A stretch of DNA of 9,543 nt from Oligoflexales bacterium (lineage in GTDB: Bacteria; Bdellovibrionota_B; Oligoflexia; Oligoflexales; CAIYRB01). This document shows, one piece after another, positions 3,001-9,543 of the stretch (position 1 is the stretch's first letter; each line of letters starts with the position of its first letter). The position numbers are program-made. Location of the stretch: the NCBI GenBank assembly GCA_041736175.1, contig JBGSUI010000239.1, positions 1-9,543 on the forward strand. Reading direction: 5' to 3'.

Positions 3001-6000
3001 CCAGGGACGATGAGGGCAGGTCTGCCGTCCGGCGAAGTTTTGATGATTCCATCATAGGTTTCGAGGTTTATATTGCCAGAAGCGTATTCACCCTCGTGAC
3101 AAAAGATACAGTGCTCGTCGATAAGTTTTTTCTGGATGTCGTCGAAGGTAATCTTTGGCTGTGGCACTACGGGGGCTGGAGCGGGTTCCACGGGGGCTGG
3201 AGCGGGTTCCACGGGGGCGGGCTCAGGAGTCACGGGTGCGGGCAAGGGAGCTGGCTGCTCTGGTTGTGGAGCGGGTTGCGGACTCACGGCAGGAGGCTGG
3301 GGGTCCACTATAGGAGTGCCCGTCTCAATCCAAGTCGCAAGGGCTCCAATCAATTCACGGCTAGGCTTTTTGGGTCCCGGAGGCATTTGACCCGTGACGA
3401 TAGACATAAAGAGGCTGCTCTCTTGTGGTTTTCCAGGGACGAGGATCGGCGCTTTGGTCCTCGATCCACGGCTTGCAAAGATGGATTCAAGGGTTTCTAG
3501 ATCGACGCCGCCGCTTTTTTGGCTGCTGTTGTGACAGGATACACAGAGTGGTTTAAAAAGTTGCTCCTGGAGTTGTACAAAGGCATTGGCTCCGCCTATG
3601 TCTCCCTGGTTTTCGCTGGTGCGTGGTCCATTGATATTCTTGTTGTTTGGTTTTTTATCTCGGGAATAGTTACAGTGGGTGGTCGTGGTAAGGAGGATCA
3701 GGCAGGAAACACCCCAGGAGCGTAGATTTTTAGAGACGGGGATTTGTTTGTTTGCCTTTGGTTTGGCAGCACTGATGGACATAAAAAACCTTCCTAGGCA
3801 ATGATTGTCGCTTTTTTTTAAGGGTGGGACGTCGGCTGAAGCGCCGAATCTTTGGGGGCGAGGGTACTTTCACCATAGGCTTAGTGTCCAGCAGAAAGAT
3901 CGGACTCCCACCCCACACCAATGAGCCTATGATGTTCCTAGTTAGAGTGACCTCTTCGGCGAAAATTGTCTTATATGATCGCTAGTTAAAACATCGTCTA
4001 TTCTGATAGACGATAAGTTTGTATTTTCGTAGAATAGGTTAGATGGATATTTATTTCGCTAAGGATGCAGCATGTTAGAGATCTTCTTTGAAATTCACAC
4101 GAATCTCTTGAGCCAGCTCAATCGCGGCGAGCTTTAGGTGGCCGACGCCGGCCTTCATGCACGGCTGCGACTATCTCCTCTGCCGTCAGATCTGTGCTAA
4201 TCCCTGCGACATCCAGGGGCGATTTGCCATCTTCCGCTGGCCGCAGCACAAAGACCACTCCATCTTTCCTGAGGATTCTGACCTCACCATCCTTGACAGC
4301 CTTTTCGAGCAGCGAGGCAAGCTGCTGGCGGGCTTCAGAAAACCTATAAACTGCCATGTTAGTACTCCACGATCTTTATATTGAGTGAAATGGCAGCTCT
4401 CTTCAGAGCCTTATCTAGTGTAAGCAGGGGGGCATTGAATGTTCTGGCACAGACTAACAGATAAGCATCGTAGGCGTAGATTCCTGCATCGTGCGCAACA
4501 TGGAGAACCTCGCTCAGGTTTACATCCACATAACGAATAGGAAGCGAGTTAAAGACGTCAAGAGCTTTAACGGCGGTTTTCAACGGCAAAGCTCGGCGCT
4601 TGAGCATCGCTGAAAAAGCGTTGCCGACCTCCCAAAATACGGAATTTGGGGCAATAAGATTACGACCAGCTGTGGCAATCAGCAAATCCGGCTTGCTTGC
4701 TTCGTTGACCAAAACCGATATTGCGGCTGAAGCATCCATCGTAATATTCAAAATTGCCATAATATCTCCAAAGACTCTCTATTGTACAATTGTACTATGA
4801 TTAGATTCCGAAAGCAATGACTCCCACATAAAGGGGCTGTCCGGAGGTCTGAAGGAGAAAATTTTACTTGGTAATCTATGCTGCAAGCAATCTAAGCATC
4901 ATTCCGCAAATTTTGACAGTATTAGAAAAAACTGGCATCCCTTTTTAAATGGTGGTGAAATTTGAGGAGGTGATCGCAATCATATTTTATCTCAGAGCGC
5001 AAAAATGTTTGCTGCCTTTGGCATATTGACATTCCTAAATCTTTGTCATTATCCACTGCGTGGGTTTGAGTAGGCCAAGGTCCTTTACCATCCAAAGCAA
5101 TGAGCTCATGATGTTCCCAGTTAGAGTGACCTCCTCGGCAAAATTCTCCTATATGATCGCTAGTTAACATATCGTCTATTCTGATAGACGATATGTTGGT
5201 TTTTTCGTAGAATAGGTTAGACGGATATCTGTTTCGCGAAGGAGGCAGCATGTTAGACATCTTCTTTGAAATTCACACGAATCTCTTGAGCCAGCTTCCC
5301 ACTCAATTCCAGCGTGCGGCTCGTGATGTTCTCGATCTGGAAGCGCCAGCTTTAGGAATATATGGACCGCGAGGCGTCGGCAAGACGACGATGCTATTGC
5401 AGCACGCTCAAATGGTTCACGGTGGTCCGGATGTCTGTCTTTACATAAGTGCCGATCACGTTGCGGTCGCTGCAGCGGGGCTTTTTTCCCTTGGTCGATC
5501 TTACTTCCAGCAAGGAGGTCAGGCTCTCATACTGGATGAAATTCATCGCGCACCGGATTGGGGGCGGCAGGTCAAGAGCCTCATCGATAGCTACCCCAAC
5601 AAGAAATTTTATCTTAGTGGTAGCTCGGCATTGGCTCTATGGGAATCTGACGCGGATCTGTCCCGTCGGGTGCTGTGGTCTAAACTCCCCTGTCTTAGCT
5701 TCCGTGAGTTTCTGAACCTTGCTCACCAAGTAACGTTTCCTCCGCTTAGCCTTGAGGAAATCTTGACGAATCATCCTAAGCACGCCATGACCATCAAAGC
5801 CCAAAGACCAGCGATTCTTGCTGATCTAAAGGATTATTTGACGTACGGATATTATCCATTTTTTGTTCAGGGAAAGCAGGGATTTCTTCAGCGCCTTTTA
5901 GCGATTATCGAAAAAGTTCTGGCGGAAGATATCCCTGATTTATTCAATATCGAAAGGAGCAAGATCTCATCGCTACGTCGTCTCCTGTGGATTGTTTGTT

Positions 6001-9000: not shown

Positions 9001-9543
9001 ACGACCAGCTTTCCCTGCTATTGCGGGACTACATGATCACTGGAGGAATGCCTGAAGTTGTTGCCCAAAGGATCAAGAATTCGAAATCACTCAAGTGGCA
9101 ACAAATCCAGGAAAATATCATTCAGACCTTTCAAGATGATTTTGCAAAATATGCCAAGAAGCACCGGGTCGGCGTGCTACGTCAGATTTTTGATCGCCTT
9201 CCCCAACAGATTGGCAGGAAGGTAAAATATTCCTATTTGGCTCCAAATGAGAGAGCAGAACATGTAAGAGACTCTATCCTCCTACTTGATAAGGCGCGGA
9301 TCCTTTTGCGGACTTTTCATACGGACGCATCTGGAATCCCCCTGAAAGCTCAAAAGGACGAGAACACATTTAAATGTTTTATGCTCGATGTAGGGCTCTA
9401 TAACTTAGATCTTGCAAAGAATTGAACAAAAAGGATCAAAAAACAAAGTTTTCTAGCATAAATTAATATATAAAAGCCCTACAATGGCGTCCGACAACCA
9501 CTAAATCTCGATACAATACTATGCCGCAGATTTTTTGAATATG

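Follow-up and report, generated by a model that had tools for sequence, protein, structure and literature searches.

An Oligoflexales genome with a large and old set of divergent ATPase-nuclease genes related to the defence candidate PDC-S01

Introduction

PDC-S01 is a phage-defence candidate of PADLOC (Payne et al., 2024, 10.1101/2024.01.29.577857), classed as untested by its authors, and a single gene that combines an ATPase with a PD-(D/E)XK domain (PMC12988326). In surveys it ranks fourth in frequency among "defences", with totals of 29,494 for Bacteria and 9,986 for Archaea (7,747 genomes, approximately 1.3 each). The domain DUF4143 has been listed as PD-(D/E)XK (Steczkiewicz, 2012). The sole test of PDC-S01 that we found in print was negative: one randomly chosen representative gave E. 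coli B no protection against T4, T5 and T7, whereas four other candidates of that screen did protect. In Thermus, an AAA_14/DUF4143 gene was up 6.6-fold in the plasmid-carrying wild-type (TtAgo+) versus the plasmid-free same strain, and no such plasmid-linked changes were described for the Δago strain. We found no report of large per-genome expansions in papers on DUF4143, PDC-S01 and COG1373, whose supplementary tables could contain such counts.

Other systems share parts of this plan. The sister family PDC-S27 (solved structures SSO1545, 2fna, and PABY2304, 2qen) has the same overall organization, and one profile aligns both families over their full length, but its Pfam pair is a different one (ATPase_2-DUF234), its proteins are longer (approximately 515 aa) and the window genes do not belong to it. 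McrBC also joins an NTP-driven AAA+ ATPase with a PD-(D/E)XK nuclease, but as two proteins, with a GTP-specific McrB that has its own DNA-reading domain. Orc1/Cdc6 initiators have an AAA+ core, a lid and a C-terminal DNA-binding winged helix, but no nuclease domain, and are found in one or few essential copies. Avs/STAND proteins are single-protein NTPases with a nuclease effector, occur in multiple divergent copies per genome and exceed 1000 aa. Here, we analyzed a window of 9,543 nt, the entire contig C139 of an Oligoflexales genome, in which an earlier note had placed three consecutive AAA_14/DUF4143 genes at 5250-9425. The genome is that of a hot-spring bacterium.

Family genes of the window

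The three consecutive genes were found as described, though the third is only one half of a gene split by an insertion sequence (IS) (Table 1). On the basis of profile matches, all three are members of COG1373, the AAA_14-wHTH-DUF4143 family known in PADLOC as the candidate PDC-S01. The AAA_14 (PF13173) cut-off of 27 bits was exceeded by all three (86.9, 84.5 and 88.3 bits for g1, g2 and g3). For DUF4143 (PF13635, cut-off 28.1), g3 scored 44.2 bits over profile positions 1-90 of 160 only, while g1 and g2 stayed below the cut-off (21.8 and 22.3 bits) and covered only positions 2-124. PDC-S01 was the sole PADLOC family matched by the window genes, with 341.5 bits for g3 against model PDLC04788 (positions 1-310 of 448). 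The matches of g1 and g2 were partial and weak (86.5 and 84.8 bits), and since the models were scored without the program's calling thresholds, both genes might escape PADLOC's own calling. Identity between g2 and g1 was 47-52%, and the ATG is the likelier g2 start because a public copy of the protein has 407 aa.

Table 1. Features of the window. Motif residues are those of g1; A1 is an alignment of 56 sequences.
Feature	Position	Strand	Description
Terminus of another high-copy repeat	1-140	.	Closes the contig; 100% identical at 13 contig ends
Second PIN gene	146-544	-	Pfam PIN 52.4 bits
Second Phd-like gene	561-899	-	PhdYeFM 29.0 bits, slightly below the 29.8 cut-off
Non-family neighbour gene	1708-2871		
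159-nt direct repeat, copy A	3913-4071	.	88% identical to copy B
Phd/YefM-like gene	4118-4357	-	NCBIfam phd/YefM, weak, below cut-off; pairs with the PIN gene at 4359-4760
PIN toxin gene	4359-4760	-	Pfam PIN 34.7 bits; cassette 490 nt upstream of g1
159-nt direct repeat, copy B	5092-5249	.	
18-bp palindrome	5162-5201		Within copy B, directly before the g1 start
g1	5250-6461	+	ORF, 403 aa, intact AAA_14 / wHTH / PD-(D/E)XK-like; divergent PDC-S01 branch
g1 predicted domains	residues		AAA+ core ~30-160; helical lid ~160-235; wHTH ~236-300; nuclease ~310-403
g1 Walker A	5364-5390	+	G39-x-R41-G42-x-G44-K45-T46-T47; invariant in A1
g1 Walker B	5535-5540	+	D96-E97; invariant in A1
g1 nuclease motifs	6240-6350	+	E331 (helix), D351, E361-V-G363-G364-x-x-K367
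g2	7153-8409	+	Intact g1 paralogue; 418 aa from GTG 7153, 407 aa from ATG 7186
g3	8460-9403	+	N-terminal part (~315 codons) of a PDC-S01 gene of the ~460-aa type, interrupted by the IS
Multi-copy IS terminus	9404-9543	.	14-nt terminal inverted repeat CTTAGATCTTGCAA

No NCBIfam score came near its cut-off, a PDB sequence search with a window protein gave P-loop-level matches only, the ESM Atlas returned nothing beyond AAA_14 clusters, Rfam had no match at E ≤ 0.1, no RNA run was listed for positions 4800-9400, and neither McrB nor McrC was matched by the window genes in Pfam and PADLOC searches. A search for a gene remnant in the 691-nt spacer between g1 and g2 yielded just 12 residues that resemble the C-terminus of g2. 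Scans for promoters and terminators were uninformative because the counts (8 and 6 sites) were close to those in shuffled sequences (6.1 and 4.4). The two direct-repeat copies flank the PIN/Phd cassette, and the high-copy repeat at 1-140 reached 38-46 times the depth of the unique part in four DNA runs.

The open reading frame of g3 (8460-9425, 321 aa) takes its final seven codons and TGA stop from the inserted element. Its missing half was located on another contig (C96:16158-16646, minus strand), where DUF4143 profile positions 89-159 were matched with 48.2 bits, and the insertion is marked by a 5-bp target duplication (TATAA). The same 136-140 nt of the IS terminus were present at seven contig ends, a second family of seven contig ends opens with the same 14 nt, and in the four DNA runs the k-mer depth of the terminus exceeded that of the unique part 15-19 times. 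No intact g3 allele was seen, as none of the contigs of these runs, which probably come from the source sample, bridged the g3 junction. The same IS also interrupts a second family gene, on contig C85.

Predicted structure and catalytic residues

The AF2 model of g1 (pLDDT 90.1, pTM 0.89) had SSO1545 (2fna) as its best Foldseek match (E 7e-8, TM 0.45-0.50). RuvB, Orc1/Cdc6 (2qby, 2v1u), RFC, DnaA and PABY2304 (2qen) were also matched, with a probability of 1.00 for 2fna, 2qby, 2v1u, RFC, RuvB and DnaA and E values from 7e-8 to 3e-6. Residues 242-297, in the predicted wHTH, had weak ArsR-type HTH similarity, and HTH families were detected on relatives too. The motifs, the modelled fold, the lid and the wHTH thus place the protein among AAA+ ATPases of the ORC/Cdc6-ATPase_2 type. 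Orc1/Cdc6 initiators share core, lid and winged helix with it (Foldseek E 3e-7), but TM-scores were only 0.30-0.32, and the family studied here has a nuclease domain and dozens of dispensable copies.

The C-terminal domain of the model was structurally closest to VRR-NUC (Z 6.2), McrC (6.1), Hjc (5.7) and NucS (5.4), followed by BsaWI, Cdn1, Can2 and NucC, a top list made almost entirely of restriction-endonuclease folds. These Z scores of 5.4-6.2 are below the tool's confidence line of 8, under which a match possibly reflects a common arrangement, and Foldseek gave no match for this domain at E ≤ 1e-3. Its predicted order of secondary structure fits an alpha-beta-beta-beta-alpha-beta core. 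In alignment A1, E331, E361, G363 and K367 were invariant and D351 was conserved in at least 90% of the sequences. Both g1 and g2 retain E331, D351 and E361 but depart from PDC-S01 by having E-x-G-G-x-x-K instead of E-x-K, with a glycine at the canonical lysine position and the invariant K367 four residues downstream. Among the 76 full-length copies of the genome (see below), the Walker A lysine was present in all 76 and the Walker B DE in 99%, and the nuclease residues were retained at 99% (helix E), 95% (D), 91% (E) and 84% (K), with the arrangement E..D..E-x-K in the other subfamilies.

We are nearly certain that each protein is a single chain that joins an AAA+ ATPase resembling ORC/Cdc6 to a helical lid, a winged-helix domain and a small PD-(D/E)XK-like nuclease. 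The NTPase-nuclease architecture proposed earlier is supported by the conserved catalytic residues, the g1 model and the structural matches, and both activities are likely retained, judging from the conserved motifs and a low dN/dS. Unlike McrBC, the family carries its ORC-like ATPase, wHTH and nuclease on one polypeptide. The analogy with STAND/Avs proteins drawn in the earlier note did not hold: nSTAND_NTPase5 was matched by g2 alone and below its cut-off (23.9 versus 34 bits), the proteins have approximately 400 aa, a C-terminal nuclease and no TPR, WD40 or LRR sensor repeats, and their fold is ORC/Cdc6- and ATPase_2-like. A search for longer fused forms of the family found none, which counts only as weak evidence.

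Family size, age and selection

Genome-wide, PF13173 had 105 matches at E ≤ 1e-3 among 150 scored of 224 first-look candidates, 66 of them with at least 44 bits and the next at 37 bits or less, and PF13635 had 70 matches, 61 above the cut-off. Counts reported previously were thereby reproduced. An iterative search of 17,168 six-frame ORFs with a profile of our own collected 111 frames, including 76 that were full-length-like and 27 fragments scoring at least 50 bits. The 76 comprise approximately 59 PDC-S01 and approximately 17 PDC-S27 (ATPase_2/DUF234) copies; the earlier note had counted the ATPase_2 proteins apart. Some PDC-S27 copies adjoin PDC-S01 copies, for example on C195 and C10. The copies represent 14 or more old lineages, and 8 of 13 representatives of other lineages matched PDC-S01 models only in PADLOC. 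They are as divergent as had been stated, with only two pairs above 90% identity and a best-partner median of 49%. Within subfamilies, identity was 0.43-0.48 in the AAA core versus 0.25-0.42 in the wHTH, and no sharply hypervariable region was apparent. The claim that this is the largest paralogue family of the genome stands for the counts but not for a single family: besides the 14 or more lineages, BLAST clustering (E < 1e-10, 70% coverage) divided it into clusters of 31, 24 and 24, compared with 33 for a cluster of ABC-transporter ATPases.

Such a repertoire is not peculiar to this genome, since relatives have up to 66 matches. Across 41 related genomes the number of matches ranged from 0 to 68, and several were denser per Mbp. 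A genome of a third genus of the same family (G001, 6.4 Mb, 93% complete) contained a 102-aa fragment only, and one of another genus (G007) had 59 matches at E ≤ 1e-10. Among species representatives, the best match of g1 was in Oligoflexus (58%), with 48% within its own family. A related-locus search with g1 alone gave no match, and a second scan was run with alignment A1. In 20 relatives the best full-length match of g1 had 48% identity; these relatives are too distant to show g1 turnover, because the non-family neighbour gene (Table 1) also reached only 41%.

We then compared the copies with 29 of the approximately 59 copies of G007. Thirteen paired one-to-one with a G007 copy at saturated dS, so the lineages are old and their spread is not recent, and the 76 copies split into 33 single-genome clades once the 29 were added. 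A recent lineage-specific burst was rejected on these two grounds. The two closest in-genome pairs had dN/dS of 0.16 and 0.08, and six between-genus pairs had dN of 0.14-0.24 at saturated dS. By these sequence comparisons the copies are under purifying selection, and their dN/dS, far below 1, does not point to an arms race. None of the 13 sister pairs shared a real flanking gene over the approximately 1.5 kb of G007 flank compared; three apparent matches were overlapping frames of the gene itself. In these respects the copies resemble accessory genes with a patchy distribution, and the IS insertions, fragments and loss in one genus are evidence of birth-and-death turnover.

Genomic surroundings and mobility

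The genes stand alone, with no partner gene. As the earlier note had held for single genes, no neighbour family recurred in more than 6 of the 76 loci, and the sole recurrent neighbour at 79 loci in other phyla was another paralogue. The genome has one type I restriction-modification (R-M) locus (C179:80290-85498); no family gene is embedded in it, and the closest lie approximately 28 and 48 kb away. An enrichment near toxin-antitoxin genes was present but modest: of the 24 PIN genes, 7 had a copy within 5 kb, against an expectation of 10.7% (p 0.01), and this window accounts for two of the seven. Proximity to contig ends was upheld, with 34 of 76 copies within 3 kb of an end versus 624 of 2664 (23%) other long frames (Fisher p 6e-5), an enrichment that may be partly due to the breakage of metagenome assemblies; 401 of the 528 contig ends are multi-copy repeats.

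An alternative to host defence is that the genes are selfish or addictive, or are carried as cargo by mobile elements, and that they persist and spread because they are hard to lose or travel with mobile DNA. Their low GC (45.0% versus 49.6% in other long frames, p 6e-17), the closeness to repeat-ended contig breaks, the patchy distribution across phyla, the adjoining toxin-antitoxin cassettes, the lack of a real flanking gene common to any between-genus pair and the negative E. coli defence test all agree with this explanation, as does the prediction of conjugative transfer for 23 of the 66 matching plasmids. The matching plasmids are, however, only 66 of 72,556, and the genes are likewise rare in phages, with 2, 13 and 12 matching records among 50,697 (nearly all unannotated faecal contigs) and 11 loci in IMG/VR. 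True mobile elements of the genome have 100% identical ends at 7-22 places, whereas the copies are far too divergent (median 49%), and flanking inverted repeats of at least 12 nt were not beyond control (1 of 67 copies versus 6 of 370 control genes). No transposase or antitoxin-like partner recurs, and the saturated dS of between-genus pairs indicates old lineages. We therefore regard selfish elements or cargo as an unlikely explanation. Two narrower candidates were rejected, namely an autonomous transposable element (only two pairs above 90% among the 76 copies, inverted repeats not beyond control) and a phage-borne gene (rarity in phage records and IMG/VR).

Possible roles of the family

In our best reading, these proteins would be ATP-gated DNA nucleases of genome conflict. 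By analogy with ORC/Cdc6/DnaA-type initiators, the ATPase could serve as a switch, and ATP-bound protomers could assemble on DNA read by the wHTH, as the Orc1/Cdc6 likeness of AAA+ core, lid and wHTH suggests. Assembly might then unite the nuclease domains and lead to DNA cutting. Different paralogues would read different DNA features, and the cell would deploy them against incoming plasmids, transposons and phages. Taken whole, architecture plus a switch-nuclease acting against incoming mobile DNA, this explanation has in our view an even chance of being right, and the role against mobile DNA, taken by itself, is similarly finely balanced. In its favour are the architecture with its conserved motifs, the purifying selection, the uneven match counts among relatives, the low GC and closeness to contig ends, the fragments and IS-cut genes, the better g1 match in Oligoflexus than within its own family, the PIN genes nearby, the rarity in phages and the Thermus gene that rose with a plasmid. 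Against it stand the negative E. coli test, the absence of embedding in R-M loci, the modest PIN enrichment, the lack of a sharply hypervariable region or of an arms-race signal in dN/dS, a contig-end enrichment that may partly stem from assembly breakage, the nuclease Z scores below 8 with no Foldseek match, and the missing canonical E-x-K lysine in g1 and g2.

ORC/Cdc6-like ATPases could also have a role in cellular DNA transactions, such as gene regulation or the processing and repair of the cell's own DNA, in which case copy number would mirror regulatory complexity, as with the many response regulators of this genome. The fold, most similar to that of wHTH-bearing AAA+ initiators and clamp loaders, the weak ArsR-type similarity with HTH families on relatives, the purifying selection and the palindrome immediately upstream of g1 are compatible with such a role. 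Yet a 6.4 Mb genome of the same family manages with no full-length copy while others have approximately 60, fragments are numerous (27) and IS insertions tolerated, no neighbouring target genes recur, and a conserved nuclease catalytic set would be superfluous in a pure regulator, all of which makes a cellular role quite improbable. That most copies are inactive, drifting relics of past acquisitions, as the 27 fragments alongside 76 full-length copies and the IS-cut g3 and C85 genes could suggest, is very improbable given catalytic motifs retained in 84-100% of the 76 copies, dN/dS of 0.08-0.16 and 13 lineages maintained in two genera.

If the proteins are ATP-gated nucleases of genome conflict, they could form a receptor-like repertoire in a small hot-spring-associated phylum, in which each lineage reads a different foreign-DNA feature and the whole stands in for sparse R-M and CRISPR systems. 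Selection would hold many lineages over genus-level time while single copies are born, moved and lost. We regard this extension as doubtful. R-M is sparse in the genome, which has two N6_Mtase matches, a single C5 methylase and one N4/N6 methylase locus that is broken; at a completeness of 91.6% it yielded no Cas1.

The earlier note had called the family unstudied and any function new, but the main idea, a defence role, has already been published under the name PDC-S01. New here are how large and how old the repertoire is in this phylum, with approximately 59 PDC-S01 copies in this genome, the lysine-shifted g1/g2 branch and the evidence for birth-and-death turnover. The case also shows that a single unproven family can dominate the "defence count" of a genome. 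A lineage whose genomes each keep 50-75 divergent copies under selection offers a natural setting for studying what the family recognizes, and, if true, the repertoire would give bacteria an equivalent of NLR-type gene families, with the fourth most common "defence" candidate as its building block.

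Gene content of the window and the split of g3

The genome under study (G000, 6.08 Mb, 264 contigs, 91.6% complete) carries three consecutive AAA_14/DUF4143 genes, g1 to g3, on contig C139, all 9,543 nt of which make up the window. All three scored 84-88 bits with the Pfam profile AAA_14, for a cut-off of 27. With DUF4143, g1 and g2 reached about 22 bits, below the cut-off of 28.1 and over profile positions 2-124 only, while g3 exceeded the cut-off, yet over the first 90 of 160 profile positions only. For g2, ATG 7186 is the likelier start, given a public copy of 407 aa. Upstream of the three genes, a YceI gene, a weak DUF6029-like gene and a PSCyt1 cytochrome gene lie between two PIN/Phd-like toxin-antitoxin pairs. 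In the pair nearer to g1, the PIN gene (4359-4760) is located upstream of its Phd/YefM-like partner (4118-4357); the other pair has the opposite order. This cassette is bracketed by a 159-nt direct repeat, of which no further copy was found elsewhere in the genome, and it may owe its position to insertion into the region upstream of g1 or to duplication together with that region. The right copy of the repeat extends up to the g1 start codon and contains an 18-bp palindrome (5162-5201). A 112-aa ORF without family match (4922-5260, minus strand) overlaps the g1 start. Just 3' of g1, a 95-nt stretch (6505-6599) is 86% identical to 8370-8459, which covers the last 40 nt of g2 and the g2-g3 spacer; it is a short remnant of the tandem duplication from which g1 and g2 arose. 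The g1-g2 spacer (691 nt) held no larger gene remnant.

Features of the window and related loci in the genome (window positions unless a contig is named)
Feature	Position	Strand	Description
Left-end repeat	1-140		shared with 100% identity by 13 contig ends; forms the left end of the contig
PIN/Phd-like toxin-antitoxin pair	146-899	-	upstream of g1-g3
159-nt direct repeat	3913-4071 and 5092-5249		88% identical; brackets a PIN/Phd-like cassette
PIN/Phd-like toxin-antitoxin pair	4118-4760	-	upstream of g1-g3
g1	5250-6461	+	ORF, 403 aa
g2	7153-8409	+	ORF, 418 aa from GTG
g3	8460-9425	+	ORF, 321 aa
Insertion element terminus, first set	9404-9543		also ends of C161, C85, C149 (both ends), C130, C45
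Insertion element terminus, second set			ends of C96, C128, C140, C181, C226, C125, C230
DNA-modification locus, type I R-M	C179:80290-85498
DNA-modification locus	C209:16564-17487
DNA-modification locus	C37:5908-7017

The third gene is half a gene, cut by an insertion element. From position 9404 to the contig end, the window is identical to six other contig ends, and a second set of seven contig ends starts with the same 14 nt, CTTAGATCTTGCAA, so the two sets represent the inverted termini of one element. The element has this 14-nt terminal inverted repeat and, at g3, a 5-bp target duplication: the C139 flank ends with TATAA, the C96 flank (other strand) begins with TATAA, and the reading frame carries on. 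The continuation (C96:16158-16646, minus strand) covers DUF4143 positions 89-159, the exact complement of positions 1-90 in g3. Since C96 also holds a further intact family copy 2.7 kb on, the real neighborhood of g1-g3 comprises four family genes. The element is known from its termini alone, its interior being absent from the assembly. In four DNA runs, probably including the source sample, the k-mer depth of the 9404-9543 terminus was 15-19 times that of the unique part, suggesting about 15-19 copies; the left-end repeat reached 38-46 times in the same runs. The same element interrupts a family gene on C85 (26908-28158) at its N-terminus, bringing to two the visible insertions inside AAA_14/DUF4143 genes.

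Size and structure of the family

The earlier note had counted 74 genes with AAA_14 and 61 with DUF4143, and profile counts with PF13173 and PF13635 reproduced both figures. PF13173 gave 105 matches at E ≤ 1e-3, of which 66 scored at least 44 bits before a gap to 37 bits or less, and PF13635 gave 70, with 61 above the cut-off. The large repertoire is real and had been carefully counted. An iterated profile seeded with the three window proteins and run over 17,168 six-frame ORFs retrieved 111 frames, of which 76 cover the profile over its full length and a further 27 are fragments of at least 50 bits. Two overlapping frames on C264 (7778-8700, minus strand; profile positions 6-139 and 236-410) appear to be a single copy disrupted by a frameshift, an internal pseudogene and not an assembly truncation.

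Scanned with Pfam and PADLOC, 13 representatives of the lineages fell into two sister families, AAA_14 with DUF4143 (PDC-S01; 8 of 13) and ATPase_2 with or without DUF234 (PDC-S27; 5 of 13, or about 17 of the 76 copies by cluster membership). The 76 copies form 14 clusters at less than about 28% identity, the largest being groups of 21 (~395 aa), 20 (~460 aa, with g3), 11 (~515 aa, PDC-S27) and 6 members (with g1 and g2). Median identity was 18.5% over profile columns, the best-partner median was 49%, and only two pairs exceeded 90%. With plain BLAST clustering of the 3,355 frames of at least 250 aa, an ABC-transporter ATPase cluster came first (33 members), and the next three (31, 24, and 24 members) belonged to the family. 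The fifth largest was a 23-member cluster of RCC1-repeat (WD40_RLD) proteins of ~450-820 aa (C11:2242-4710 and 22 similar frames).

Protein architecture and conserved motifs

Each chain combines an ORC/Cdc6-like AAA+ ATPase, a winged helix-turn-helix (wHTH) and a PD-(D/E)XK-like domain. The AlphaFold model of g1 (56 aligned sequences) had a pLDDT of 90.1 and a pTM of 0.89. Foldseek matched its first three quarters to AAA+ proteins with a lid and a winged helix, namely SSO1545 (2fna), PABY2304 (2qen), Orc1/Cdc6, RFC, RuvB, and DnaA (E 7e-8 to 3e-6, TM-scores 0.25-0.50). The last ~110 residues, folded alone, had a pLDDT of 76.8 and no Foldseek match at E ≤ 1e-3. With an exhaustive structural aligner, this domain mostly retrieved restriction-endonuclease-fold proteins (VRR-NUC, McrC, Hjc, NucS, BsaWI, Cdn1, Can2, Card1, NucC) at Z 4.4-6.2, under the safe level of the tool; the top row was an unrelated TBP-interacting protein (Z 6.4). 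The conserved motifs agree with a restriction-endonuclease fold. Among the 76 copies, the Walker A lysine is kept in 100%, the Walker B DE and the helix glutamate in 99% each, the nuclease D in 95%, and the E and K of E-x-K in 91 and 84%. In g1, g2, and four more copies, E-V-G-G-x-x-K replaces E-x-K. E331, E361, G363, and K367 of g1 are invariant across 56 relatives from many phyla, with D351 nearly so; this motif is a stable variant rather than decay.

Distribution and age of the repertoire

DUF4143 was detected in 37 of 41 related genomes; four had none and three had one match. Fully scored match counts included 68 in G000, 66 in G007, 52 in G027, 44 in G012, and 44 in the 2.8 Mb of G016 (67% completeness). 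Among 104 genomes sampled from the phylum (all at least 85% complete), at least 78 carried the family. First-look candidates in this sample, which are not copy numbers, amounted to 75 in G000, 72 in G007, 64 in G027, 50 in G012, and 57 in the 2.5 Mb of G084. Relative to genome size, several genomes are thus denser in the family than G000, and the expansion is common to relatives, a possibility already named in the earlier note. G001, from the same taxonomic family (6.4 Mb, 93% complete), had a 102-aa fragment only.

We compared G000 with 29 of the ~59 copies of G007. Eighteen of the 29 were closer to a G000 copy (up to 80% identity) than to any other sampled G007 copy. A FastTree phylogeny divided the 76 G000 copies into 33 single-genome clades and gave 13 G000-G007 sister pairs (support ≥0.95 in 10). 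The largest G000-only clade (18 copies) corresponds to PDC-S27, whose G007 counterparts lie outside the 29 sampled. Six sister pairs had dN values of 0.14-0.24 with saturated dS, and the two closest in-genome pairs had dN/dS ratios of 0.16 and 0.08. No real flanking gene was common to the two members of any of the 13 pairs within the stretch of G007 flank covered, about 1.5 kb. The repertoire is neither special to G000 nor recent.

Public relatives of g1 showed 88, 84, and 69% identity, followed by thousands at 49% or less, and 7,390 of 8,000 scored sequences matched at E ≤ 1e-10. Among species representatives, the best match was an Oligoflexus MAG (58%), followed by Chlamydiae, Desulfobacterales, Gammaproteobacteria, and Caldisericia (42-45%), with Bacteroidota lower. 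Among 20 relatives, the best full-length match of g1 was 48%; a neighboring non-family gene also reached only 41%, so this comparison cannot show turnover of g1.

Genomic context and mobile elements

Within 3 kb of the 76 copies, no neighbor family recurred on more than six contigs. At 79 g1-type loci of other phyla (within 4 kb), the sole recurrent neighbor was another AAA_14/DUF4143 gene (11 of 79), followed by histidine kinases (5) and ABC transporters (3). A search for longer fused relatives gave none, though this is weak evidence. G000 has 11 places where family frames are no more than 3 kb apart. The GC content of the copies was lower than that of other long frames (45.0 vs 49.6%; Mann-Whitney p 6e-17), and 34 of 76 copies lie within 3 kb of a contig end, compared with 624 of 2,664 other long frames (Fisher p 6e-5). 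Of the 528 contig ends, 401 fall into 100 repeat families with shared terminal sequences (the largest with 22, 17, and 16 ends); therefore, contig ends mark multi-copy elements or variable regions. This implies a very repeat- and IS-rich genome, with an assembly broken almost everywhere by multi-copy elements. PIN genes were mildly enriched near the family (7 of 24 within 5 kb vs 10.7% expected, p 0.010), two of the seven being in the window.

The single type I R-M locus of G000 has no family gene inside, and Cas1 was not found in this 91.6% complete assembly, from which repeats often go unbinned. Conventional DNA-modification defenses look sparse for a 6.1-Mb genome. Other DNA methylases were few, with one further weak N6_Mtase match and one C5 methylase; one N4/N6 methylase locus is broken by four TAA stops.

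Three family queries retrieved 2, 13, and 12 matches among 50,697 phage records, nearly all unannotated fecal 'Bacteriophage sp.' contigs. IMG/VR contained 11 loci with the family, and g1 matched 66 of 72,556 plasmids. Flanking inverted repeats did not exceed the control level (1 of 67 family genes vs 6 of 370 controls).

Proposed function

These proteins have conserved catalytic residues, no partner, purifying selection and an accessory distribution. By analogy with established initiator-type AAA+ proteins and PD-(D/E)XK nucleases, ATP binding would license assembly on DNA bound by the wHTH, the nuclease domains would thereby be paired for cutting of both strands, and hydrolysis would reset the protein.

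The DUF4143 family is also known as PADLOC PDC-S01, one of 145 candidates. A 2026 survey places it fourth in frequency among the defenses of prokaryotes, with 29,494 bacterial and 9,986 archaeal occurrences, and puts the mean for Bacteria at 14.4 defense occurrences per genome; in its description, PDC-S01 and PDC-S27 both fuse an ATPase to a PD-(D/E)XK domain (PMC12988326). A rumen survey reports 10,358 PDC-S01 in 6,530 genomes (PMC13356809). DUF4143/COG1373 had been listed as a PD-(D/E)XK of unknown function (Steczkiewicz et al., 2012), and a 'REase (DUF4143-related)' effector domain is named in a 2026 preprint. One AAA_14/DUF4143 gene of Thermus was up 6.6-fold in the TtAgo+ wild type with a plasmid compared with the same strain without it, and the Δago strain is reported to have no such changes (PMC4406477).

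The earlier note read the genes as a germline-like repertoire sensing foreign DNA. This defense interpretation is reasonable but already catalogued, as the PDC-S01 candidate. Incoming mobile DNA is our best-supported guess for the target, still unproven, because of the published embedding, the island-like behavior, the rarity in phages and the sparse R-M and CRISPR systems of G000. The one published test speaks against it: a cold-seep study tried eight candidates, including PDC-S01, for protection of E. coli B from T4, T5, and T7, and PDC-S01 is not among the four protectors it names (S05, S70, M05, HEC-01; 10.1101/2024.09.26.614923). It is speculative that the paralogues differ in the targets they read; within subfamilies, the wHTH was only mildly more divergent than the ATPase core (values of 0.25-0.42 vs 0.43-0.48).

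Supplementary tables aside, we found no account in the literature of 50-75 family copies per genome. Our new findings are the size and age of the repertoire in this phylum and its persistence there, its turnover as seen in fragments, insertions of IS elements and the loss from one genus, and the lysine-shifted branch that includes g1 and g2.
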